From an uncultured Clostridia bacterium (GTDB taxonomy: Bacteria > Bacillota > Clostridia > Christensenellales > UBA1242): a stretch of DNA of 64,000 nt. The position numbers were made by a program, and so were the translations under genes. Position 1 is the first letter of the stretch, and each line of letters opens with the position of its first letter. A model generated the notes under the pieces. It did no database searches, was not told the DNA's origin, and worked only from the letters and a program-made list of their open reading frames with translations. This document shows positions 5,641-38,660 of the stretch, in pieces. The stretch covers positions 2,529-66,528 of the forward strand of contig CALWKA010000001.1 in NCBI GenBank assembly GCA_944381155.1. The letters run 5' to 3'.

Positions 5641-5762
5641 AACTCATCCAAGCCGATGAGTTTAGATATCTATTAAACACCATCGGTCAGCCTTTAGCAC
5701 CTTGCATAAGCAGGTTGCTGTGTGGTCAACGGGGCTGTCCCTCGCACACTCTTTATGGATAA
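5641..5762 (-). promoter_or_regulatory. SAM-I (S-box) riboswitch
   Basis: The minus strand reads ...AAAGAGTGTGCGAGGGACAGCCCCGTTGACCACACAGCAACCTGCTTATGCAAGGTGCTAAAGGCTGA.... The conserved S-box core elements GAGGGA, GCCC, AGCAACC and GGTGCTAA are present, and the element lies upstream of metK. Confidence 0.8.
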
Positions 5763-22822: not shown

Positions 22823-23454
22823 ATTTGCTCCTAATGATGACTGAATTTTATCACACGATTGTCAGTTTGTCAATATGCTTTTTATGATAAGTTTAAAAAA
22901 TACAATTTATAAAAATAAAAAAATTGTCATAAATTTATAAAAAATATAAAATAAATGATCAATAATTCATAATTTTTAATATTTTTTTAATAATTAATAA
23001 ATTTTTATTTTAGTTATATAAAATATAAAACTATCAATCACTTATAAAGCCAATCAAAAAAATTTGTTTTACTTCTAAAAATTATTTTATTTTATAAATT
23101 TGTTTTCTATAAAATACTAGTCAATATATTATATCTAATATATATAATACTTATATATCTTTATCCTTATATATTAATATAATATTATATAAATCTATAT
23201 ATTATATATATTATAATTATATTGTATACTATTATCTTTTAACTTACATATATTTATCATTATGGACATTAAAAATTTTATTATATATATTCATAATTAT
23301 TAAGTTTGAATAATATTGAAAATAAAATTCTATAAATTATATTAAGACAATTAAAAAAAATTCTTTACTATGTAAAATAATTCTAGATTATTAATAAAAA
23401 AATAAAATTTATATTTTTTTATATGTAAAACGCTAACATTTGGTTAATTTTACA

Positions 23455-23483
23455 TTGACTTTAAAAATTTTTAATATTATAAT
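23455..23483 (+). promoter_or_regulatory. Promoter TTGACT-17-TATAAT placed 7 nt before the recF ATG; predicts a leaderless transcript
   Basis: TTGACT at 23455-23460, TATAAT at 23478-23483 and ATG at 23491, with no SD. Confidence 0.55.
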
Positions 23484-23490
23484 TGAAAAA

Positions 23491-24567
23491 ATGAAAATAA
23501 ATTCAATCAAACTTAATAATTATAGAAACTATAAAAATTCAACTATTGATTTCACTGATGGCGTAAATTTTATTGTAGGGAAAAATGCACAGGGCAAAAC
23601 TAATCTACTAGAGAGTATATATTTATCAAGTGTTGGGAAAAGTCCAAAGAATTGTAGGGAAAAGCAAATCATTATGTTCAATGAAAGTCAAGCCAGAATT
23701 GAATTAGATTTTTCCACACTTGCAGGCAAAAAAAATATAAAGATATATTTAGATAAGGCAAACAAAAAATCTATCAAGGTGAACAATCTCAATATTTTGA
23801 AATTGACTGAATTTGTTGGTATACTATCTATCGTATATTTTAGTCCAGACGAATTGAAGTTGATCAAAGAAGTTCCAGAAGATAGAAGAAATTTTTTAGA
23901 TATATCAATTTCTCAATTTGATAGGACATATTTATACAATCTTCTCAAGTATAACAAAATTTTGAAACAACGAAATTCAATATTAAAGAGCGACAATAGC
24001 GATCAAACGAAGATAGACGAATTGAAGTTGTTTACACCGCAGTTGATTGAATGTGCGGAAAAAATTATTGAAAAAAGGTTAAATTTTATTGAAAAGTTGA
24101 AAAAATACGCAATAAATCTGCATAAATTCATAACAGACAGCGAAATTTTGGATATTTCATATAGCTACGCAAAAGATGACAAGTTGACAATCAAAGAACA
24201 ATTATCTCAAGAATTTGAAAAAATAACGACTAAAGAAATTGAATTGGGTTATACCTGTATTGGTCCGCATCGCGATGACATCATTTTCAAAATCAATGAT
24301 AAAGATTGCAAATATTTTTCTTCACAAGGTCAACAGCGTACCGTGGCGTTGGTCGTGAAACTTTCGCTAATGGAAGTAATAAAACAAGAGATTGGTGAAT
24401 ATCCCATCTTATTGTTAGATGATGTGTTGAGCGAACTTGATCAAACTAGGCAGGACAAATTGATTGAATTGGTTAGCAAATATCAAACGCTAATTAGTTG
24501 TACAAAAATTCCAAACACAAATATAAAATACAACACAATAAAAATTGAAAACGGAACAAAAATTTAA
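23491..24567 (+). CDS. recF: DNA replication and repair protein RecF
   Basis: Walker A GKNAQGKTNLLE, signature SQGQQRT and Walker B LLLDDV. The preferred start is MKINSIKLNNYRNY; the track starts at TTG 23440. Confidence 0.9.
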   Translation: MKINSIKLNNYRNYKNSTIDFTDGVNFIVGKNAQGKTNLLESIYLSSVGKSPKNCREKQIIMFNESQARIELDFSTLAGKKNIKIYLDKANKKSIKVNNLNILKLTEFVGILSIVYFSPDELKLIKEVPEDRRNFLDISISQFDRTYLYNLLKYNKILKQRNSILKSDNSDQTKIDELKLFTPQLIECAEKIIEKRLNFIEKLKKYAINLHKFITDSEILDISYSYAKDDKLTIKEQLSQEFEKITTKEIELGYTCIGPHRDDIIFKINDKDCKYFSSQGQQRTVALVVKLSLMEVIKQEIGEYPILLLDDVLSELDQTRQDKLIELVSKYQTLISCTKIPNTNIKYNTIKIENGTKI

Positions 24568-24840: not shown

Positions 24841-26196
24841 TTAATATTTTAAAAGTTGAGATTTTATATCGTTTACTAGCGTTCTAATATGTGGATTGAT
24901 TTTCACTTGATTGCTGATTTTATCTCGCGCGTGCATTATGGTGGTATGATCCCTTCCGCCGAATATTGCACCGATCGCAGTGAGCGGGATGCTCAACATA
25001 TCGTTTATCAAATAGATACACAACTGTCTAGGTTCTACAATCTCTTTATTTTTTTTCTTTCCTATCAAATCTTCTTTTGACACTTTGAAGAAGTCACATA
25101 CTGTATTTAATATTTTTTCAGCATCTAGATTGGTCTTTTCTGTCTCTCCATAATCTTTAAGTGCTTCGTGCGCATCTTCCATACTCGCGTGCGACTTTCC
25201 TAACAAACTTGAATAAAATACAACTTTTGACAAAATTCCTTCCATCTCTCGAATGTTTGTACCTGTTTTTTGCGCTATGAAGTCAACCACATCTTCGTCT
25301 ACTAAATAACCTTCTTGACTACATTTCTTTTTGATAATTGCCACCTTAGTTTCATAATCTGGCTCTTGAATGTCTTGAATGAGTCCACTGCTGAATCTAC
25401 TGCGCAATCTCTCTTCTAGCGAACTCATTTCTTTTGGTGAACGATCGGACGCTATGATAATTTGTTTATTGTTTTGATACAGATCATTGAATGTATGGAA
25501 GAATTCTTCCTGAATTCCCATTTTATTGCTAATAAATTGAATATCATCAATCATCAGCACATCTACGCTACGATACTTATCTCTAAAATCGAGATTTGAT
25601 TTGTCCTTTCCACTACGAATTGAATCTACATAATCATTTGTAAACTTTTCACAAGTGACATATAATACATTCAAATCTGGCCTATGTTTGTTCAAATAAT
25701 TTCCTACAGCGTGGAGTAGGTGAGTTTTTCCTAATCCAACTCCACCGTATATGAACAGCGGATTAAACTTTTCACTAGGATGCTCGGCTACACTTTGCAT
25801 TGCTGCGCACACCACTTGATTTGATTTTCCTACCACAAAATTTTCAAATGTATACTTTTGATTGAATTTAGACTTGAAGTTGGACGAATCTTTTTCACTC
25901 ATCATTCGCTCTAACTCCTCATCCTGCTTGCGAATTGATTCTTCATACTCTTGAATGTCGGTTATTCGAACGAATGTATACGGCGTGAACTCTTGTCTAA
26001 CACATTTTGTGATTTTTTCATAAATCGCGGGCTGATTGACTTGATTTTTCGCCGTGACACTAGGTGCTTTTATAATTAATTCATCATTTGCGTATTGAAT
26101 TGGGGTTAAAGTATTGATCCATAAGTCGAATGTGACCGCCGTGACCTCGTTTTCCAACTTATTCAACACTTTTTTCCATTGATCAAGTAAAAACAT
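24841..26196 (-). CDS. dnaA: Chromosomal replication initiator protein DnaA
   Basis: 451 aa with AAA+ Walker A GGVGLGKTHLL and the domain IV motif GGRDHTTIMHA. AGGAG RBS upstream. Confidence 0.95.
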   Translation of the reverse strand: MFLLDQWKKVLNKLENEVTAVTFDLWINTLTPIQYANDELIIKAPSVTAKNQVNQPAIYEKITKCVRQEFTPYTFVRITDIQEYEESIRKQDEELERMMSEKDSSNFKSKFNQKYTFENFVVGKSNQVVCAAMQSVAEHPSEKFNPLFIYGGVGLGKTHLLHAVGNYLNKHRPDLNVLYVTCEKFTNDYVDSIRSGKDKSNLDFRDKYRSVDVLMIDDIQFISNKMGIQEEFFHTFNDLYQNNKQIIIASDRSPKEMSSLEERLRSRFSSGLIQDIQEPDYETKVAIIKKKCSQEGYLVDEDVVDFIAQKTGTNIREMEGILSKVVFYSSLLGKSHASMEDAHEALKDYGETEKTNLDAEKILNTVCDFFKVSKEDLIGKKKNKEIVEPRQLCIYLINDMLSIPLTAIGAIFGGRDHTTIMHARDKISNQVKINPHIRTLVNDIKSQLLKY

Positions 26197-26447
26197 ATTT
26201 CACTCCTACGATATTTATATTATATAATAAAATTAAGATTAAGTCAATTGGCAAAATGAAAATATATGTCTAAATAATTTTCTTTCGCAATAATTGGCAT
26301 TCGTCGTTTTGTTTTTTTGCTGGATAAAAAAATTTTGATAGGGTAAAATTTTTAAGTTTAGCGAATAAACATACGGCTTTAAATAAAAATACGAAGAATT
26401 CTAATAATTTTTTTTCTTATCTCATCAATTACTAAAAAATTTTTAAG

Positions 26448-26593
26448 TTTTCCACTGACAAAATATAGTTATCCACCTGGATTTGCACACAGTTAAGCAC
26501 AATCATTGTGGATAAAAATAGTGTGGAATTTGTCGAAATTTGGCACAAACACCACTAAATATTGAATAATTTCAAGTTGTCCACTTTTCCACA
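26448..26593. promoter_or_regulatory. DnaA-box cluster 1 (dnaA-dnaN divergent intergenic region)
   Basis: One perfect box, TGTGGATAA (26507-26515). One-mismatch boxes TTATCCACC (26469-26477) and TTTTCCACA (26585-26593). Two-mismatch boxes at 26448-26456 and 26577-26585. Confidence 0.75.
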
Positions 26594-26750
26594 TTCACTA
26601 ATAAAAAAATCACTATCAAAAAACAAAAAAAATTAATAAAAAAACTACACGCGTGCACACGCATATAATGCGCCTGAAATACTATTTTATAGTATTTTTC
26701 TTTGATTTAATTAACGAAAAAAATTTTTCGACAAAAGTGTAAAAATTTAT

Positions 26751-26779
26751 TTGACATATTGCGGATCGTTTGCTAATAT
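26751..26779 (+). promoter_or_regulatory. dnaN promoter (TTGACA-17-TAATAT, with a TG extension)
   Basis: TTGACA at 26751-26756 and TGCTAATAT at 26771-26779. The leader is about 130 nt. Confidence 0.6.
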
Positions 26780-26909
26780 AGTGCTGTATCATTAAGGCAA
26801 AAAGGTCAAATTGCTTTGATGATTTGTCAAAAAATCTATATTTTGGGCAAGATAAGATTTTTTGAATTAAACGCGTTTTAAGGGGAGTATAGGAGGAAAA
26901 AGAGTAGAT

Positions 26910-28007
26910 ATGAAATTCAGATGTGACGGATTGGAGTTAAGCGAGGCAATTAGTACAGTATCAAAAGCTATCAGCTCAAAGACCACTTCTCAAATTCTTG
27001 AAGGAATTAAGATGGTGTGCGAGGATGACCTACTTGTTCTTACTGCAACTGACCTTGAAATGAGTGTTGAAAAAAAAATTCGAGCAGAAGTGGATTCACG
27101 CGGAGAGACGGTTGTGCCGGGTAGACTCTTCGGCGAATACATAAAAAAACTTACAAATGAACAGATTGAATGCGAATTGAATGAGAAAAATCAGTTGAAA
27201 ATTTCGTATACAGACAGCGAAGGATGCCTTCAATGTATGGATATTAGTGAATTTCCTGCAATTAAGGAAGTGAACAAGGATAATTTCTTTGAAATTACGA
27301 AAGAAAATTTCAAGTCTTTGATAAACAATGTGTTCTATGCGGTGGCGCAGGACGATAGTAGACCTATTTTGAAGGGTATTTTGATGGAAACCAATCAAAA
27401 TAATATTCGTGCTGTGGCTGTGGACGGATGTAGGCTCAGTATTTCAAACAAAAGTTTGGTTATGTCCACTAATGATTTCAAAATAATTGTGCCAGGCAGG
27501 AATTTGAACGAGATTGTAAAGATGATGAATGGGGAAGACAATGTCAAAGTTTATATCCATTCAAACAATATTATGGTGGATCTTGGGGATACGATTGTGA
27601 TCAATCGCTTGATTGATGGTCAATTTATTAATTATCGCCAGATTGTGCCAAAAGATTTTTCTACAATCGTCACAATAAATAAAGAGCAGTTGGAAGACGC
27701 CATTGATAGAGCGAGTGTGCTTTCGCGTATTGATAAAAATAATTTGGTTAAATTCGACATCAAAGAAAAGAATTTGATGCTTACTTCAAATAGCGAATTG
27801 GGCAACACGCGTGAAAATATTACGGTGGGAGTGAAGGGCAACGATCTCAATATTTCGTTCAATTCAAAATATTTTAGTGATTGTTTGCGTGTGATTGACA
27901 ATCCGTATGTGAAGATGAATTTTAATAGTCAGATTCAACCGTGCGTCATCACTCCGTCCGAAGGAGACGATTTCTTGTTCTTAATTTTGCCTGTAAAAGC
28001 AAGATAA
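26910..28007 (+). CDS. dnaN: DNA polymerase III beta sliding clamp
   Basis: 365 aa starting MKFRCDGLELSEAISTVSKAISSKTT. GGAGG RBS upstream. Confidence 0.95.
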   Translation: MKFRCDGLELSEAISTVSKAISSKTTSQILEGIKMVCEDDLLVLTATDLEMSVEKKIRAEVDSRGETVVPGRLFGEYIKKLTNEQIECELNEKNQLKISYTDSEGCLQCMDISEFPAIKEVNKDNFFEITKENFKSLINNVFYAVAQDDSRPILKGILMETNQNNIRAVAVDGCRLSISNKSLVMSTNDFKIIVPGRNLNEIVKMMNGEDNVKVYIHSNNIMVDLGDTIVINRLIDGQFINYRQIVPKDFSTIVTINKEQLEDAIDRASVLSRIDKNNLVKFDIKEKNLMLTSNSELGNTRENITVGVKGNDLNISFNSKYFSDCLRVIDNPYVKMNFNSQIQPCVITPSEGDDFLFLILPVKAR

Positions 28008-31257: not shown

Positions 31258-31921
31258 GTGGCAATAAAAAATAAAATCATAATGTTAAATAAATTTATAA
31301 AAAATTAAATAAAAATAAAAAAAACAATTTTTTTCGAATAATTAATTTATATAAATATAAATTAAAAAAAATAATAAAAATATATTAAAAAATAAAAATA
31401 ATAAATTTTAAAAATTAATTAATAAACAAATTTTGTATGATTTTTTTATAATAAATTGGTCAATTAAAAATATGATTTTAATCTTATAAATTGCATTTTT
31501 ATGATTAAAGTAATAGAATAAAAAGGATATGAATTGTGGTTATGTTTTGTTGCAATAGTTTATGATTCAACAAAAATTTGCTATCATCAATTTAAAAATT
31601 ATTCTTGACATATCAATTCAATTAGAGTAGAATAATTTTGCAAGTAGAATAGATTGATTGTCTAGATTTGAAATTGATTATTTTGTTTATATTGTTGAGA
31701 TGAAAAAACACATAAAAAATAATTTATTCATTCATTTATCAAAATTTTGATATGGGCATAAAAGATATGACAATTGATATTAATTCTTCATTAATAAAAT
31801 GCGCTAGCGATTTTATTTAAAATAATATCTGTACCCGATTAAAAAATAAAATGGGGATTTTAAGACTAGCAAAAAATTGTAATCAAAATTATCAATCCAT
31901 ACACTTTTGAATAAATTATAT

Positions 31922-32008
31922 GCGGATATGGCGAAATTGGCAGACGCGCTAGATTCAGGTTCTAGTGAGAGCAATCTCATGCAGGTTCAAGTCCTGTTAT
32001 CCGCACCA
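31922..32008 (+). tRNA. tRNA-Leu (anticodon CAG)
   Basis: Acceptor GCGGATA/TATCCGC, anticodon loop TTCAGGT, long variable arm, T-arm GGTTCAAGTCC, encoded CCA. Confidence 0.9.
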
Positions 32009-32009
32009 G
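31940..32009 (+). repeat. 70-bp direct repeat, copy 1 (tRNA-Leu from the D-loop to CCA plus 1 nt)
   Basis: GCAGACGCGCTAGATTCAGG...TTATCCGCACCAG is identical at 32151-32220. Confidence 0.95.
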
Positions 32010-32028
32010 CATAAAGAAAACAGCGGAT

Positions 32029-32150
32029 GCCAATTTCGCTAATAGGGGACCCCGAAAATAGACGATGTTTTCGGGGAAAAGGAGCAAGCGAATAAAACTA
32101 AAACTTTTTGCATTCAAGCAAAAAGTGAAATAAAATGAAGCTTGCGACGC
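32029..32150 (+). other. Unclassified structured insertion module, copy A (about 122 nt)
   Basis: (1) The 5' 11 nt GCCAATTTCGC (32029-32039) are the exact reverse complement of tRNA-Leu positions 31931-31941. (2) GGGGACCCC lies at 32045-32053. (3) Hairpin 1 is CCCCGAAAA/TTTTCGGGG (32050-32076). (4) Hairpin 2 is CTTTTTGC/GCAAAAAG (32104-32125). (5) A TGAAGC motif lies near the 3' end. It is a paralog of 37798-37922. Confidence 0.7.
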
Positions 32151-32220
32151 GCAGACGCGCTAGATTCAGGTTCTAGTGAGAGCAATCTCATGCAGGTTCA
32201 AGTCCTGTTATCCGCACCAG
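32151..32220 (+). repeat. 70-bp direct repeat, copy 2 (orphan tRNA-Leu 3' portion)
   Basis: Identical to 31940-32009. It is followed by a terminator-like hairpin, AAACGAACCTT...AAGGTTTGTTT (32230-32276). Confidence 0.95.
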
Positions 32221-32338
32221 ACAAGAATAAAACGAACCTTATATAACCAGCAAGATTAATATTCAAGGTTTGTTTTATAATAAAATTAATTTTATTAATC
32301 ACCAAAAATAAGTTGTGGCAATTTTGAACGCTTTAAAT

Positions 32339-33391
32339 TTATAATGTGTTGTGATGGCAATAAGGGCAACCTGGTGCTAAATTTAAGTTATAATTTTTAA
32401 CAATCTTTTCTGATTTGGTCAAGACATTTTCAAGAAATTTTGTCGATGGTTTTGTTCCAATATTGTTGTACGGCACATATGGGGAAAGCACAGGCATAGC
32501 ACCACACTTGCAAATTTCTTCAACACCTTTCAAAGAAGATTGCAAACTTTCTAAGCCTATAATAATGCCAGACCTAACATTTTGCGTTCCAAAAACTTTG
32601 CTTGCAAGTTTTAAAAAGTAAAAATAATTTTCCCTGCCTATATTAAATTTTTCTCTACAATATTTTTCACATATTTTTTTATCATAAAGCTCCAAGTTAA
32701 TTGACAGCCCTCCAACACCAAAACTTTTCAAAAGTTTTAGATATTCAAGATATTGAGATGTGTCGGGGTAAGAATCAAAACCGCGTGGCGTCATCATAAC
32801 ATCAAAAGAATATTGTGGATATTTCTGGCAAAAAAATTTATATACCTCTGTTAAATATTTTAAATCACACTCTTTAGGACTTCCGCCTGTTATTAAAACA
32901 TGTGTGACACGATCATCTTTCAAATGCACCTGAAGACATTTATCTAAATCCTCAATGCTATTTTTTGTGTATTTAATGTTATTTAGTGTGCAAAATGCGC
33001 AATGATTGTTGCACCCTCCAATAGGCGAAATGCGTGTTCTATCAAAATGAGTGGCTGCAATTGGAGAGGAAAGCAATTTGCTTTCTTCCTTTGAAATTTT
33101 GTTTTTAATATAAGACCTTATTGGTTGCCAAACTTCAACTTTAACTTCTTCGTTATTGAATTTCAAAATCAAATTATTGTTAATTAAAGTTAATTTATAT
33201 ATAGACTCTTTATTTAAGTCGCTTGTCACATAAAAATTATTTCCCAGCACCAACATAATCCCAGTTGTTGTGACATAGTCATCATTATAAAATTTTTCCC
33301 CAAATCTTTTTTTTAAATAGTCAAGAGCATCTTTTTCAATATTAACACCATTAACCATAAGTTCAATTTTAAGTTTTTTCAATGAAATCAT
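32339..33391 (-). CDS. Radical SAM protein with an N-terminal extension of about 120 aa
   Basis: CX3CX2C motif GGCNNHCAFC (Cys127/131/134 by my count). C-terminal PGCPYCHH. Its start overlaps the upstream ATP-grasp stop codon (ATGA). Confidence 0.75.
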   Translation of the reverse strand: MISLKKLKIELMVNGVNIEKDALDYLKKRFGEKFYNDDYVTTTGIMLVLGNNFYVTSDLNKESIYKLTLINNNLILKFNNEEVKVEVWQPIRSYIKNKISKEESKLLSSPIAATHFDRTRISPIGGCNNHCAFCTLNNIKYTKNSIEDLDKCLQVHLKDDRVTHVLITGGSPKECDLKYLTEVYKFFCQKYPQYSFDVMMTPRGFDSYPDTSQYLEYLKLLKSFGVGGLSINLELYDKKICEKYCREKFNIGRENYFYFLKLASKVFGTQNVRSGIIIGLESLQSSLKGVEEICKCGAMPVLSPYVPYNNIGTKPSTKFLENVLTKSEKIVKNYNLNLAPGCPYCHHNTL

Positions 33392-34374
33392 TTTATCACC
33401 CCTTTTATTGCCAAATTAATTTGTCTGTCAAATAAAGTTTTTTTATGTTTTTCAGACAATTGTTTATTAAGTTGCATTGTTGATGTTTGAAATCGAGCAT
33501 TAATTTCCATAAAATAAAAAGTGTCTTTCACCAAAATATAGTCTATTCCGCACACCCCTCGATAGCCAATTTGTTTCAAATATTCTCCAATACCCTTTGA
33601 TTCAGTCAAAATCTTATTTGAGATTTCTTTTGAGATATTATAGTCCGCTCCATCATAACACATTTTGTCACTTGTCTTGTTTATAATCTGCTGTGATGGT
33701 GCAAAATATTCCACAAAATCATTGTCAACAAACAAATGAATATTATATGATTTACAATTTTCCTGTAAAACAGAAATGCAATATTTCTTATGTTTTTTTA
33801 TTAGTTTCAATTGATTTTTTAAATTTTCTTTTGTAAAAATAAATGTATTTTCACCTGCAAAACCATATTCTTCCTGCACAACAAAACTTAAACTAAATGT
33901 TTTTTTATTTTGCCATACCTTTAGAAAATACTTTTCTAATTCCACTCCTAGCAAAAACTTATAATCAAGGATGTTTGTGTATGGCTTTAAATCTTCTCTT
34001 ATTTTAAACTTGTTATTTACATAATCGTACATTGAATATGTATTAACACTTAATATATGGTATTTTTTTAAATTATAACCTTTCAAATTATGCTCGTTAT
34101 ATCTCAAAAAATAAGCATCTTTATCTTTTTTCAACACCATTTTAACTGCTTCAATAAAAAATTTGTCAATTCTCTTTAAGTCAGAAATTTTGTTGTAATC
34201 AATTCTTTCGTCTGGATATAAATCAGAAAAACAGATGTTATTTTTTGTTTCAAACCGGCGTTGAACGGTGATTGAACCAAGGAAATTGTTTTCTGATTGT
34301 AAAATTAAATCATTAATACCAATAAAATATATATTCATAGATTCATCCTTACATATTTTAACATTATTATACAT
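33388..34374 (-). CDS. ATP-grasp family protein
   Basis: 328 aa. The C-terminal GVCGIDYILVKDTFYFMEINARFQ resembles the ATP-grasp Mg/ATP-binding region. Confidence 0.6.
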   Translation of the reverse strand: MYNNVKICKDESMNIYFIGINDLILQSENNFLGSITVQRRFETKNNICFSDLYPDERIDYNKISDLKRIDKFFIEAVKMVLKKDKDAYFLRYNEHNLKGYNLKKYHILSVNTYSMYDYVNNKFKIREDLKPYTNILDYKFLLGVELEKYFLKVWQNKKTFSLSFVVQEEYGFAGENTFIFTKENLKNQLKLIKKHKKYCISVLQENCKSYNIHLFVDNDFVEYFAPSQQIINKTSDKMCYDGADYNISKEISNKILTESKGIGEYLKQIGYRGVCGIDYILVKDTFYFMEINARFQTSTMQLNKQLSEKHKKTLFDRQINLAIKGVIK

Positions 34375-34505
34375 TATAAATTATAAAACTCAAAATTAAT
34401 TTTAAAAAATTTTTAACAAAAATTAATATCGAAGTGTATTCCACAAGTGTCCAACTTTTTGGGTTCACCCAAGTTCACTTTCCGCGTCCTTATTTTTGAA
34501 TTTTT

Positions 34506-35213
34506 CTAAATAAATGATATATTGATATCACCATTGTTGCAATCGGCAATCAGATGCTTTGTGCCGTCAAGTTTTTCTGCGGGCAAATTTGAGTTTCCCT
34601 TTTTTATGGTACAATCAATTGAATAATCACCAATGTCTCCAACGATTGTGCCGACTATGCTACCATTTTTTGTCTTTAAGTCGATAGTAGAATCTGCTTG
34701 CACTGAATTTAGCTGGATATCTCCGCCATTCGATTCAAGCGCGAGATTGTTTTTGATTGAAATTTCAGTTAATTCAATGTTTTCATTCGTCGTGCTGACC
34801 GTTAGATTAGTTAAAAGATTGTTTGGAATTTCAATGATAATTTCTCTATATTCGCTGTCCGCCTTCACGCCTATGCGGTCGATCCAAGATTTTTCATCCA
34901 CAAATTGAACATTCAATCTTTTGTTTGATATAGATATATCAATCTTTTCTTTTTCGCTTTCAAAATAATTGATATGTATTTGATCGTCACTAGATGATAG
35001 AATTTTTATTTTCCTATCTCGAACATCTATGTTTATATTTTCAATTTTGGCGATATGACAAGCGTATGTTTTTTCGCTAAATGTTCCCGCACCTATTACG
35101 CCATTGAAAGATAAGATCAATAGAGTGGCAATCACTGCGATAACGATCAACACGAGTGAGATAATGATAAGTTTAGTTTTTTTCATACTTTTCTCCTTCA
35201 ATTTACTTGACAA
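34506..35213 (-). CDS. Membrane-anchored beta-repeat protein (DUF4097 / LiaG-like putative adhesin)
   Basis: N-terminal TM helix, then repeated motifs of the type NGGDIQL, KNGSIVG and NNGDINI. The start may be the internal MKKTKL. Confidence 0.55.
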   Translation of the reverse strand: MSSKLKEKSMKKTKLIIISLVLIVIAVIATLLILSFNGVIGAGTFSEKTYACHIAKIENINIDVRDRKIKILSSSDDQIHINYFESEKEKIDISISNKRLNVQFVDEKSWIDRIGVKADSEYREIIIEIPNNLLTNLTVSTTNENIELTEISIKNNLALESNGGDIQLNSVQADSTIDLKTKNGSIVGTIVGDIGDYSIDCTIKKGNSNLPAEKLDGTKHLIADCNNGDINISFI

Positions 35214-35284
35214 TAGTTTTTATTGCCATTATCATCAGTATAAACCTTTGTGTAACACAAAAGTCAAGGAGAAAATTCAAATTT

Positions 35285-36070
35285 ATGGAAAAATTTTTCA
35301 CAATCAGCAAAATGGCAAAATTGGTGGGGACGACGAGCGAAACTTTGCGCCATTATGACCGCATTGGACTAGTTAAACCTAGCAAATTAGACGAATGGAC
35401 GAATTATAGATATTATACGAGTCAGGATATTGTGCGTCTGAATACGATAAAAGCTTTGCAGTTTATGGGTATGTCGCTAAAAGATATTAAACAAATTCTA
35501 AATTCACAAGATTTTTTTGAAATCGTCAGTTTTTTAGACGAAGCGCTGATTTCAGCGGATAAAAAAATCAACGAACTGAATTTGGCAAAATCAAAAATTG
35601 AAAGAGCAAAGAACTTTTATGCTAGCAAGATGGGTGAGGATGATAAATCTGAAGTGGTGTTTATTCAAGAGATTGAAAAACGCACCATTTTAATTTCAAC
35701 CACACTCACGCAAGCCAATATTGATAATTTGTTTGATTATCATAGGCATTTTTATCTTCAATTAGGCAATGAAAAATCAAACGATTTTCTATTTGAAGAC
35801 AGAGCGGGCATATATTCGGACGAATTGGGTAGCCATTTGTTTGCCATTTGCACAAAATTTAGTGAAGATAAAAATTTGATTTGCTTGCCAAAGGGGAAAT
35901 ATTTATGCGCAAATTGTATTGAAAAAAATCGCGCCAATGTGCGCGATAGACTGCTAAATATAGCAAAAGAGCAATATCATATCACTCCAAAATTTGTGCT
36001 AGAGATGATAAATCTGACGGGCATATTGAAATGGAACTATCAAATACAAATATATTTGGAAAATATTTAA
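35285..36070 (+). CDS. MerR-family transcriptional regulator with a C-terminal effector-binding domain
   Basis: HTH FTISKMAKLVGTTSETLRHYDRIGLVKP. The preferred start is ATG 35285; the track starts at 35207. Confidence 0.8.
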   Translation: MEKFFTISKMAKLVGTTSETLRHYDRIGLVKPSKLDEWTNYRYYTSQDIVRLNTIKALQFMGMSLKDIKQILNSQDFFEIVSFLDEALISADKKINELNLAKSKIERAKNFYASKMGEDDKSEVVFIQEIEKRTILISTTLTQANIDNLFDYHRHFYLQLGNEKSNDFLFEDRAGIYSDELGSHLFAICTKFSEDKNLICLPKGKYLCANCIEKNRANVRDRLLNIAKEQYHITPKFVLEMINLTGILKWNYQIQIYLENI

Positions 36071-36438
36071 TTTTAAACCAATTGAATAGATTTTTAACAA
36101 TCAAAATTTTAATCTATAACAAGTTAATATTGTTCAATCATATGAAAAACTAAATCGCATTTTGAATCAATCGTATTTTGCTAGACTATATAAAATTCAA
36201 ACATAATACAATACATTAGAATACAAAGCTATTGAAATAAATTATACAATCAATACCTTGCATGTGGAATATATATAGTTTATTCACTCCGCACGGATGG
36301 AATAAAAAATCAATTTTATTTTGTTTTATAAATTATGAAACAATATTGCATTTGCTTTGAAGTTTTCAAATGTTAAAATGAAAGTTTGATAGTTTAAATT
36401 AGCAGACTAAAAAACCTGTTTATTTATTTCTACAAAAT

Positions 36439-37125
36439 TTATTGGCATACGATTTTGACGCGGGCGCAAATTTCTATTGAACTATCTAGTTCAGTTTCTA
36501 GTGAATGATTTCTATAAATTGTTGTGGAATAAAAATTGCTTTGTTCTTCTATCTTTATGAGCGTGACATCTTTTCCTAGCAAATTTTTTGCGTTTTCTAT
36601 GGCGTTGTTCACCGCAAGAGATAGTGCAGTTTGATAGACTTCGTCTGCATTAGATAGAGTGAGATTCATATAATTTATATCCGCAATATCTGCGCTTATC
36701 AGCGCGTTTAAACTATTTTCATAATTATTTAGATCGGTCAATTCGTATGAAAAATTGATTATTGCATAATATCCTACCAATGTTTTTCCGCTCGAATAAT
36801 CGTAGTTCGGATTGCTGGTGAAACTATTAATTTTTATATTTTCAGCAGATATTCCGCTAGAAATCAACGCGCGCTTGGCGTGTTCGAACTGCTGGATAGA
36901 TTTTTCTTTTGCAATCGCGGGATCGGTGTCAAGATTTTCTATCTGGACAAACACTTCTGCTTTATCTGCGGGCAGGACAATTTGCGATGAGCCAAAGATT
37001 TCAAGCGTTGGCTCGCTAGATAGGGCACGGGCAGTTTTTGTTTCGGGCAAAAGGGATAGTAAGAGTGCGGATGACAAGAGTATAATAAACACAAAAATTG
37101 AGAAGCAAAAAATTTTCTTTTTCAT
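36439..37125 (-). CDS. SIMPL/DUF541-family secreted protein
   Basis: Signal peptide and a C-terminal pattern ALSLAVNNAIENAKNLLGKDVTLIKIEE typical of the family. Confidence 0.6.
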   Translation of the reverse strand: MKKKIFCFSIFVFIILLSSALLLSLLPETKTARALSSEPTLEIFGSSQIVLPADKAEVFVQIENLDTDPAIAKEKSIQQFEHAKRALISSGISAENIKINSFTSNPNYDYSSGKTLVGYYAIINFSYELTDLNNYENSLNALISADIADINYMNLTLSNADEVYQTALSLAVNNAIENAKNLLGKDVTLIKIEEQSNFYSTTIYRNHSLETELDSSIEICARVKIVCQ

Positions 37126-37543
37126 AAATTTTCCTCCAATATTAAACTGGTCAAAAATCTATAAAAAATTTATTCAATACAAAATTAGTTAAAATATCAA
37201 AAATTTTGACAAACTTATCCAACATTTGAATTTGTGGTAAGTCCGTTGTTTAAAAGGTCGAATCTTAATATTTACAAAAAAATACATAAAGACAAATATT
37301 GAATTTAGAAAAAACATAATAGAAAAAAGTTTATAAAATTGTATATTTGGAATTTTGTTGAGAGTTATGAAAGGCTATTCAACATATATTCTGCCGTTAG
37401 TTTTAAAAACATATTTTAATCGATATAGGAAATTCAAATGTTGGTTGATTTTAGTAAATATCAAGTTTTTTGAAAAGATAAATTGAAAACACTTTACAAA
37501 TCTTTCATTTTAAAGCATAATAAAGTCTGTAAAAGGAGAAAAA

Positions 37544-37795
37544 ATGATAGAATTTAGATATGATACTCAACTTCTTATCGAAGGCAAGAATTTGGACGAA
37601 GATAAGATTCGAGACTATTTTTTGAAGAATTTTAAGGGAGATTGCTTAATTGCGGTGGGAGATAGCGAACTGATTAAAATTCATTTCCACACAAACGAAC
37701 CTTGGGATGTGTTGAAATACTGCGCAAGTTTAGGCGAAATTTGCGACATCGTCGTCGAAGATATGGACAGGCAATCTCGCGGACTGAAAGGCTAA
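37544..37795 (+). CDS. Small protein resembling an internal segment of DAK2-fusion protein YloV (possible gene remnant)
   Basis: 83 aa. GDCLIAVGDSELIKIHFHTNEPWDVLKYCASLGEICDIVVEDMDRQ parallels my recollection of the Bacillus YloV segment GDSLLVIADEDLAKVHIHAEEPG...IKIENMREQ. GGAG RBS upstream. Confidence 0.5.
   Translation: MIEFRYDTQLLIEGKNLDEDKIRDYFLKNFKGDCLIAVGDSELIKIHFHTNEPWDVLKYCASLGEICDIVVEDMDRQSRGLKG
37765..37794 (+). repeat. 30-bp direct repeat, copy 1 (3' end of the 37544 ORF)
   Basis: GGACAGGCAATCTCGCGGACTGAAAGGCTA is identical at 37923-37952. Confidence 0.95.
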
Positions 37796-37797
37796 AA

Positions 37798-37922
37798 CCA
37801 TATCTTCGACGACAAAAGGGGACCCCACAATTAATGAAAAAATTGTGGGGGAGGCTGAATAATCAAACAAAAGCGAAGTATGTGACGAAGGAGCATACGA
37901 GAAAGAGTGCAGATTGTGAAGC
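37798..37922 (+). other. Unclassified structured insertion module, copy B (about 125 nt)
   Basis: (1) The 5' 16 nt CCATATCTTCGACGAC (37798-37813) are the exact reverse complement of 37751-37766. (2) GGGGACCCC lies at 37818-37826. (3) Hairpin 1 is CCCCACAATT/AATTGTGGGG (37823-37850). (4) Hairpin 2 is GTATG/CATAC (37878-37898). (5) It ends in TGAAGC (37917-37922). Confidence 0.7.
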
Positions 37923-37952
37923 GGACAGGCAATCTCGCGGACTGAAAGGCTA
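37923..37952 (+). repeat. 30-bp direct repeat, copy 2
   Basis: Identical to 37765-37794. The next base differs, giving TAG here versus TAA in copy 1. Confidence 0.95.
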
Positions 37953-38009
37953 GAAGAAAGTTTTAAACAAATAAAATAAAAAATAAGTTAAAATAAAGGA
38001 GAAAATTTT

Positions 38010-38660
38010 ATGGATATTATGACCAAAGGTGAAGGTTATTTAGATTTCACACCAGATATAATTAAACTGCATTTTGATTTTCGTATTAGGGCAAAAGAAT
38101 ACAATATGGCGGTAGAAAATGGCGTAAAGACGGTCGAATCTTTTGTAAAACTATTGCAAAGTTTAGGATTCAAAAAGGAAGATTTCAAAACACATTCATT
38201 CAGAGTATATGAAGAAACGAAATATGATTCAATGAGAAAAAAGGATGTTAGTTTAGGCTTTGCATACAATCAAAATTCGAATTTGAAATTTGACTATGAT
38301 ACCATCAAACTTGCGCAGTTGATGACAGCGATCAGCAAGTTTAAAGACAGTCCACGAACCGAGATCAGATTTGAATTAAAAAATCCAGACGGGGCAAAAT
38401 CTCAATGTATTGACCTAGCGTACAAAAACGCAAAATCAAAAGCGCAGGCAATAGCAAAGAGCGCGGGAAAGAAATTGAAAGAGTGCGTAAAAATCAGTTA
38501 CGAGCCATTTGAGGCTAGCGTTCAATCAAAATCTGATTTTGGCGGATTGTCTAAGACGGGTATTAATGGTCTACAATTAGATAGTGCAATTGAAAATGTG
38601 CTAGTGCCAGAAGATATTGAAATATCTGAAGAATTGTATTGCCTATTCATTGCAGAATAG
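38010..38660 (+). CDS. SIMPL/DUF541-family protein (no obvious signal peptide)
   Basis: 216 aa with the family-like segment AKSKAQAIAKSAGKKLKECVKISYE. Paralog of 36439-37125. Confidence 0.55.
   Translation: MDIMTKGEGYLDFTPDIIKLHFDFRIRAKEYNMAVENGVKTVESFVKLLQSLGFKKEDFKTHSFRVYEETKYDSMRKKDVSLGFAYNQNSNLKFDYDTIKLAQLMTAISKFKDSPRTEIRFELKNPDGAKSQCIDLAYKNAKSKAQAIAKSAGKKLKECVKISYEPFEASVQSKSDFGGLSKTGINGLQLDSAIENVLVPEDIEISEELYCLFIAE

Follow-up and report, generated by a model that had tools for sequence, protein, structure and literature searches.

Two modules of the same design stand at the 3′ ends of two genes, one for tRNA-Leu(CAG) and one for an 83-amino-acid (aa) protein, in a 64,000-nucleotide (nt) stretch of contig CALWKA010000001.1 from an uncultured Clostridia bacterium (the whole stretch is called the window below). 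Ahead of each module lies an antisense copy of a piece of its own host gene, and behind it lies a second copy of that gene's 3′ end. What kind of element has this design, and what does the antisense piece do? Our answer to the first question is that the modules, copies A and B, belong to a widespread, noncoding, strand-specifically folded family of gut and rumen Clostridia, within which both are old and have diverged. Our answer to the second is tentative: the antisense piece may set the junction at which the element joins its host.

In both copies a host segment (X) runs into the first copy of the gene-end repeat (P1), the antisense arm (G) follows, and the module proper (M, about 110 nt) consists of an A/T linker, the motif AGGGGA, a hairpin c with a CCCC..GGGG foot, and a domain d. 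A second copy of the gene end (P2) closes the arrangement. Pairing between X and G gives a helix b. The features of copy A are as follows.

31922-32008, plus strand: tRNA-Leu(CAG), the intact host gene of copy A (ARAGORN; Rfam tRNA, 54.7 bits)
31931-31942, plus strand: X_A, D-arm host segment paired by the antisense arm (repeat finder; the pairing reaches 31947 with two mismatches)
31940-32009, plus strand: P1_A, first 70-nt direct-repeat copy (repeat finder)
32028-32039, plus strand: G_A, antisense arm TGCCAATTTCGC (0 of 500 shuffles; an imperfect 17-nt version starts at 32023)
32040-32049, plus strand: A/T linker TAAT, then the conserved AGGGGA
32050-32076, plus strand: hairpin c, CCCCGAAAA / TTTTCGGGG (fold; family covariation)
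32077-32150, plus strand: domain d, with the 3′ end GACGC (fold; family alignment)
32084-32089 / 32140-32145, plus strand: outer stem of domain d
32103-32111 / 32118-32126, plus strand: inner hairpin of domain d, flanked by two 13-nt internal loops
32151-32220, plus strand: P2_A, second copy of the 3′ 70 nt of the tRNA gene, then native flank (weak tRNA match)

The direct repeat of copy A (31940-32009 and 32151-32220) is 100% identical over 70 nt, which are the last 69 nt of tRNA-Leu and one further base. Its inverted match (31931-31942 and 32028-32039) is exact over 12 nt, or covers 17 nt if two mismatches are allowed. Copy B has the same parts in the same order.

37544-37795, plus strand: host gene of copy B, encoding an 83-aa stand-alone FakA-like_M protein (Pfam, 3.9e-19)
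37751-37766, plus strand: X_B, coding segment GTCGTCGAAGATATGG paired by the antisense arm
37765-37797, plus strand: P1_B, first repeat copy with the element-linked TAA stop (30 nt exact, 33 nt with one mismatch)
37798-37813, plus strand: G_B, antisense arm CCATATCTTCGACGAC (15 to 16 of 16 nt kept in a sister species)
37814-37822, plus strand: linker AAA, then AGGGGA
37823-37850, plus strand: hairpin c, CCCCACAATT / AATTGTGGGG
37851-37922, plus strand: domain d, with the 3′ end GAAGC
37859-37864 / 37912-37917, plus strand: outer stem of domain d
37878-37883 / 37893-37898, plus strand: inner hairpin of domain d
37923-37955, plus strand: P2_B, displaced second gene-end copy with the TAG stop of empty sites, then native flank

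Here the direct repeat (37765-37794 and 37923-37952) is exact over 30 nt and covers 33 nt with a single mismatch, TAA to TAG; the inverted repeat (37751-37766 and 37798-37813) matches at 16 of 16 positions. The 83-aa protein has 7095 homologues, and its nearest named relative is from Peptostreptococcus. Two divergent paralogues with the SIMPL (DUF541) domain, at 36439-37125 (minus strand) and 38010-38660 (plus strand), lie on either side of this gene and copy B.

A preliminary description of the window had reported the shared layout, and every feature it listed is present. Its exact 16-nt antisense match at B and its host segment ending 2 nt inside the repeat there are correct; at A the match is 12 nt long, not 11, and the segment ends 3 nt inside the repeat. 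The layout is not a product of chance. The sequence AGGGGACCCC occurs exactly twice in the window versus 0.12 times expected, and none of 500 flank shuffles reached the observed arm/flank complementarity score for A or for B. The RNA folds of the two modules are alike (z-scores of -5.2 and -4.7) and share a perfect hairpin c and an outer stem enclosing two ∼13-nt internal loops and an inner hairpin. When the sense strand was folded together with the host flank as single-stranded DNA (ssDNA), helix b, hairpin c, and domain d all formed, with z-scores of -6.0 and -6.9. We rejected chance or an assembly artifact as the origin of these structures; they recur in many independent assemblies, and the shuffles gave 0 of 500.

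That A and B belong to a family, and are not an isolated pair, was borne out by a covariance model made from these two copies alone, which found about 54 copies in human-gut metagenomes (E values of 1e-8 to 1e-11) and no third copy in the 64-kb window. A pattern scan of metagenome contigs likewise gave dozens of copies from human-gut assemblies in at least 8 different upstream contexts, with a common tail (GGGGAAAAGGAGCAAACGAGCAAAAGA..) that makes their homology to copy A plain. When 25 distinct copies were aligned, the consensus fold had 20 pairs, with 98% of the cells paired. The covariation score was 0.477, versus 0.21 for shuffles (0 of 500) and at most 0.137 for slid controls. Thirteen of the 20 consensus pairs have changed on both sides; compensatory change, first seen in hairpin c of A and B, is strong across the family. 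Because G-T/U wobble pairs are confined to the strand bearing AGGGGA, the folded strand is the sense strand of the upstream gene.

Two features of the modules turned out to have other meanings than they might suggest. The ATG in the loop of hairpin c, which had been noted as opening a short open reading frame (ORF) in both copies, is missing from other family members; since neither it nor the ORFs are conserved, they are no evidence of coding. The internal loops (a single loop pair, GCAAAAGA / TCAAAAGYG) are conserved in the family and so are not variable guides. For the same reason we rejected the matches of the copy A loops to nearby flanks (GAATAAAAC and AAATAAAATG) as guide pairings.

A second form of the family, subtype 2, has its extra hairpins 5′ and not 3′ of AGGGGA and hairpin c; it was seen in Oscillospiraceae and other Clostridia (L210, L213, L241, L251, L260, L290, and L308). 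One of these loci, L210 (2495-2699 and 3180-3300), also contains two tandem cyclic di-GMP-I (c-di-GMP-I) riboswitches and, beside its module, a run of differing short hairpins spaced by a constant CAATTCATG.

The family is previously uncatalogued, an abundant, covarying structured repeat that is absent from Rfam. In the window and 13 related loci, Rfam matches were limited to tRNA, the S-adenosylmethionine (SAM) riboswitch, and the c-di-GMP-I riboswitch; the modules had none, and the suggestion of an undescribed family has survived that check. No description resembling this layout turned up in the literature that we searched. A scan of a genome collection gave mostly random GC-rich matches and at least about four useful loci, the window's own species not being among the matches listed. 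Phage and plasmid collections held no real match to the module. The 113 matches in viral contigs included none with a recognizable module, and those with good hairpins were GC-rich chance or coding matches, for example in portal genes. In a Nanosyncoccus (Saccharibacteria) contig (L230, minus strand, about 170-260), AGGGGACCCC and a hairpin are nested in two longer helices just upstream of infB.

Does the gene-end repeat arise when the element inserts, or does the element bring it? Contigs encoding an identical 83-aa protein answered this for copy B. Filled sites (L001, L003 to L005, and L007 to L009) and exactly empty ones (L002, L006, and L010) both occur among near-identical strains, as a check proposed in the preliminary description had anticipated; empty sites read ..GGACTGAAAGG[C/T]TAGAAGAAAG. 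In filled sites the first repeat copy always ends in TAA, and the second copy ends in TAG, as do the empty sites. A polymorphism on the left, GAT CGA versus GAC AGG, varies in the first copy, and the second copy always has GAC AGG. All differences between the two copies at B are synonymous or stop to stop. At L290, a subtype 2 locus at an ORF end, the copies share 30 identical bases, after which they differ at 4 positions, again all synonymous (ACG AGA..TTC versus ACC CGC..TTT). Because the differences are synonymous only, the copies are alleles, each of which evolved as a working gene end, and not a duplication made by insertion. It follows that the unit carries its own gene end and that the host's former end is displaced, and in this respect the element would resemble elements of the integrase type. 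The preliminary description had held the arrangement to be unlike an attachment (att) scar. That is correct in part: the duplicated gene end, given that its copies differ only synonymously, acts like an attP-type replacement carried by the element.

Units measure 158 to 211 bp and occur in tandem in L005, L311, and L368. The A locus in one metagenome assembly (L005, 168-680) has two tandem 211-bp units and three copies of the 3′ 70 nt of tRNA-Leu; this array could be a real amplification or an effect of assembling repeats. An empty site for copy A was sought, and none was obtained. Two of the three empty B sites in the window's species have one mismatch to G.

The copy B site is also occupied by the element in a sister species (95% identity in the 83-aa protein), so that the parts can be compared. 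X is identical at 16 of 16 positions and G at 15 to 16 of 16, versus 21 of 29 for the gene end P and 56 of 101 (55%) for M. Since G is far more conserved than M, the arm at B is under constraint. By the same comparison the insertion at B is old, predating the split of the species. In the sister species the stop codon and G are separated by a decayed extra copy of the gene end, and in its single-unit strains G and the 5′ half of M survive, but not the 3′ half or the second repeat. X carries synonymous changes in relatives that lack the element, and relatives with a changed X lack the element.

Arms that match their own upstream flank, which the preliminary description had proposed to look for in further copies, were found at independent targets. 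In a GC-rich organism (L311) the host is tRNA-Val(CAC), and a 62-nt region from the T arm to CCA, with the terminator, is present three times, flanking two units. The left unit has a 10-nt arm, CCAAGACCTC, 7 nt before AGGGGA; it is the complement of GAGGTCTTGG, a segment that ends 2 nt inside the repeat. At tRNA-Arg(TCT) (L343) the order is tRNA, terminator, GGACTTGAACCCAC, CAAAAA, and AGGGGACCCC; the arm GGACTTGAACCCAC is complementary to the T arm over 14 nt, and the contig stops too early for any repeat to show. At L290, where the ORF ends in ..RRGAGYYLQF (suggestive, in our reading, of an OmpR-type response regulator), the arm is 14 nt long, has one mismatch, and straddles the repeat boundary. 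At these loci, pairing is perfect over repeat bases 1 and 2 and often mismatched at base 3. Elsewhere the position of the arm is taken by a local hairpin (L225, L323, and L326, which have no host-matched arm), and other armless members abut the terminal helix of another palindromic repeat. In general, then, the order in the family is helix b, A/T linker, AGGGGA, hairpin c, and in some members a further domain; at gene ends the two strands of helix b are X, from the host, and G, from the element, and P1 is enclosed by it.

How might such a unit come to a gene end? The reading that we prefer, with somewhat less than even confidence, is that M belongs to a nonautonomous element whose folded single strand is the substrate of an enzyme acting in trans, with the X:G pairing setting the junction. 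The protein-less unit at gene and tRNA 3′ ends would be P′ (its own copy of the gene end), G (an antisense arm of 10 to 16 nt), and M. It would be joined to the host at the X|P junction, so that P′ completes the gene and the old 3′ end (P2) is pushed downstream. G would pair with X just upstream of P and form helix b, which encloses P1 and lies 3 to 8 nt before AGGGGA. A structure-specific recombinase or transposase supplied in trans would act on the folded sense strand, most likely as ssDNA, and the unit may move as a small circle or as a single strand. The X:G pairing would position or select the junction, as the IS608 guide does, but by a much longer match. G may be a targeting program or may simply form a helix that is required. 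A stronger version, in which a protein-free element of ∼150 to 210 bp has its site programmed purely by pairing (antisense arm to the left and sense copy to the right of the junction) and its trans-acting, structure-specific enzyme recognizes AGGGGA and hairpin c, seems doubtful to us.

The hairpin foot CCCC..GGGG of M is like the hairpin of IS608. With IS200/IS605 elements such as IS608 and with palindrome-associated transposable elements (PATEs), M shares a strand-specific ssDNA fold and, immediately 5′ of the foot of the hairpin, a short motif that is conserved. IS200/IS605 elements have an active strand, and the folded strand of M is the G-rich or coding strand. IS608, which reads its cleavage and target sites on ssDNA by pairing with a 4-nt guide beside a hairpin (PMC3597680), is the nearest mechanistic precedent. 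In both cases a site would be recognized by an element-borne guide that pairs with the flank, and not by protein (PMC3597680), if the arm of M does target. The guide of M is 10 to 16 nt long, however, versus 4 nt in IS608, and stands 9 to 13 nt from the hairpin foot and not adjacent to it. M units also differ from IS200/IS605 elements and PATEs in traveling with a 30- to 75-nt copy of host sequence and in having neither a fixed tetra- or pentanucleotide nor duplication-free insertion; their junctions differ, and the host sequence is present twice.

Several observations weigh against the preferred reading. Each unit has only one CCCC..GGGG hairpin, which may set it apart from IS200/IS605 elements with their two ends, and the second hairpin of M has no conserved sequence. 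No reading that we considered explains how a new copy gains both a sense P and an antisense X. Most family copies have neither a flank-matched arm nor a repeat, and many of these are in mosaic arrays or have a local hairpin in place of the arm; the expectation that every copy would have a flank-complementary 5′ segment therefore failed. In the sister species the repeat starts 8 nt inside X, compared with 2 to 3 nt in A, B, and L311; the boundary is not fixed, and the 2-nt overlap is not the constant it had been taken for. The persistence of an intact G beside a truncated M fits a present-day role of the helix in the host as well as it fits targeting. Because the B element is older than the species split, the empty B sites may be losses by recombination between the repeats and not unoccupied targets. 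The search for an enzyme was also negative. Pfam searches with the ten neighbors of A and B, one by one, found only housekeeping or unrelated proteins and no transposase, integrase, or reverse transcriptase, in agreement with the preliminary description, which had seen no recombinase adjoining either copy. Among the 25 of 74 matching Pfam families listed for the other 40 ORFs of the window, there was no recombinase, transposase, integrase, or reverse transcriptase. A motif scan for IS200-type (Y1/HUH) transposases gave 0 matches in the window and all fetched loci, and no integrase was found beside the L311 array.

M could instead be a cis-acting RNA of 3′ untranslated regions, cotranscribed with the upstream gene, whose helix b couples the fold to the transcript end (for stabilization, processing, or translation-linked control), with the duplication as a by-product. 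We consider this rather unlikely, yet it accounts for several facts. It is the sense strand of the upstream gene that folds, G-U pairs are tolerated in the fold, M is downstream of and co-oriented with genes at all clear loci, the RNA folds are strongly nonrandom, and the retention of all 16 positions of G even beside a truncated M suggests that the helix functions today. At L311, L343, L254, and L225, however, an intrinsic terminator lies between the gene and M, and this placement argues against simple cotranscription. No promoter-like signal stands out, pairing with a D arm or T arm would misfold the preceding tRNA, and the element-borne gene end and tandem units are left unexplained.

Those last two features speak for a second alternative. 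The units could be miniature att-flanked remnants or satellites, like cis-mobilizable elements (CIMEs), with a tyrosine or serine integrase elsewhere that reads the gene-end repeat as its att core; M and G would then be passengers or arm sequences with no role in the choice of site. Gene-end direct repeats, a synonymous replacement end that restores the gene with the element's own allele, accretion in tandem, and precise loss with the site left intact are classic for integrase elements at tRNA and gene 3′ ends and for CIMEs. The units of M are nevertheless just 158 to 211 bp and gene-less, M is a covarying single-strand fold and not a set of protein-binding arms, and the att cores of A and B are unrelated even though their modules are homologous. 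The exact 10- to 16-nt antisense of the host's left flank, 31 to 94 nt away, is foreign to any known att architecture, and no integrase was among the Pfam families listed for the window or was found in the surroundings of L311. On this balance we judge the explanation unlikely.

Guides of the bridge RNA type from IS110 elements seem very unlikely. Under that scheme an RNA of G, M, and P would pair with the top strand to the left and the bottom strand to the right of the junction, and the recombinase would be encoded elsewhere. The order of antisense left, scaffold, and sense right does fit the left and right target guides of a bridge (seek) RNA, which pairs on both sides of the junction, and in A, B, and L311 no mismatch interrupts the pairing up to and including its 2-nt step into the repeat. 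M, however, has no DEDD recombinase nearby and a single internal loop pair, conserved in sequence and not variable, where a bridge RNA has two programmable loops. IS110 elements are not known to make long repeats such as those of the host sequence here, the 8-nt boundary in the sister species does not fit, and, with terminators upstream of M at several loci, the module is probably not transcribed there. Reverse transcription of a G-M-P RNA at a staggered break (target primed), duplicating P, is highly improbable: on paper a staggered-nick scheme would give the order U-X-P1-G-L-M-P2-D, but the repeat copies are different alleles and so no fresh target duplication, no reverse transcriptase was seen, and the origin of G is left unexplained.

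Known kinds of element and process were also compared with M and set aside. Like the repetitive extragenic palindromic (REP) sequences and bacterial interspersed mosaic elements (BIMEs) that are associated with RAYT proteins, M is a high-copy extragenic hairpin repeat with a conserved 5′ motif, found in mosaic arrays and just after genes; unlike them, it is in Clostridia, larger, and multihelix, and an antisense arm and a duplicated gene end have not been described for REPs. The exon- and intron-binding sites (EBS/IBS) of group II introns pair about 12 to 14 nt upstream and 1 to 2 nt downstream of the insertion, similar to the span of -14 to +2 at B. M, a module of 110 nt, is far too small for such an intron, lacks domains V and VI, an Rfam intron match, and a reverse transcriptase, and carries a copy of the downstream exon. 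A miniature inverted-repeat transposable element was rejected because one arm of the inverted repeat lies in the host's own coding or tRNA sequence, which empty sites have as well, and because the repeats are allelic and 30 to 75 nt long. A diversity-generating retroelement was rejected because the repeats are identical or synonymous, a tRNA is among the targets, and the Pfam families listed for the window include no reverse transcriptase. Guide RNAs of TnpB or IscB do not fit junctions that have no common motif and a target that is intact after insertion, and the layouts of retrons, integron attC sites, and CTX-type hairpin att sites do not fit either. In situ duplication of the target site (by staggered cuts, Cas1-like, or target primed) was dismissed since the copies represent different alleles. 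An origin of the arm by snap-back priming was dismissed because terminal microhomology is absent: B, L311, and L290 are mismatched at repeat position 2.

The window, with a G+C content of 32%, comes from a spore-former and contains dnaA, dnaN, recF, gidA, parB, and spo0A. GC skew is positive across the whole of it, which makes the folded strand the G-rich one and, with replication from left to right, the lagging-strand template. Within 24841-28007, dnaA is on the minus strand and dnaN (26910-28007) on the plus strand, as is recF (23440-24567), and there is no origin-type switch in skew. The 384-aa ORF adjoining copy A is unannotated and had no NCBIfam match; it presumably begins with a lipoprotein-type signal sequence. 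From about 31900 to 36100, the segment from tRNA-Leu through radical-SAM, ATP-grasp, DUF4097, and MerR genes is strain variable relative to L001, L002, and L007 to L009, and in other strains the same SIMPL gene is preceded by glycosyltransferase, EamA, and GH43 genes. The minus strand at 5667-5761 has a SAM riboswitch (Rfam RF00162, 51.6 bits).

Two further observations concern the surroundings of M in other contigs. A second repeat family, R, is a palindrome of ∼125 nt in human-gut contigs (L246, L254, L262, L272, L277, L299, L313, and L338). Its termini covary, as TAAAACGGCGA..TCGCCGTTTTA or TAAAAGTCA..TGACTTTTA, and in at least 9 loci its start falls exactly at the stop codon of the gene before it; one radical-SAM/SPASM gene has different final residues in different strains, in keeping with the R variant present. 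A small gene in L247 (minus strand), L278, and L320, the N terminus of whose product (MKTYYVYIMTN..LYTGVT) resembles, in our reading, a GIY-YIG nuclease, has a conserved leader, TATGTCATTGCGAGGAGCGTAGCGACGTGGCAATCTCCCGGAAGGG, and elsewhere M modules lie inside that leader.

A gene-end repeat, a restored gene, tandem units, and precise loss are ordinary for site-specific integrative elements and their gene-less derivatives. What is unusual is a size of 158 to 211 bp, a core that is a covarying single-strand fold, and a conserved antisense of the host sequence to the left of the junction. The family is real and its target-matched arm recurs; programmability, mobility, and the enzyme are proposals. 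Read conservatively, the M family can occupy the ends of tRNA and other genes as a unit that puts its own gene end in place of the host's, and it provides a concrete, testable example of a conserved helix between a host coding segment and a noncoding element. If the arm selects the site, this would be a natural and very small guide-directed insertion module without an adjacent gene and would point to an unrecognized enzyme of programmable specificity. It would then be a new natural programmable insertion system, and one that also replaces the end of the gene it enters.

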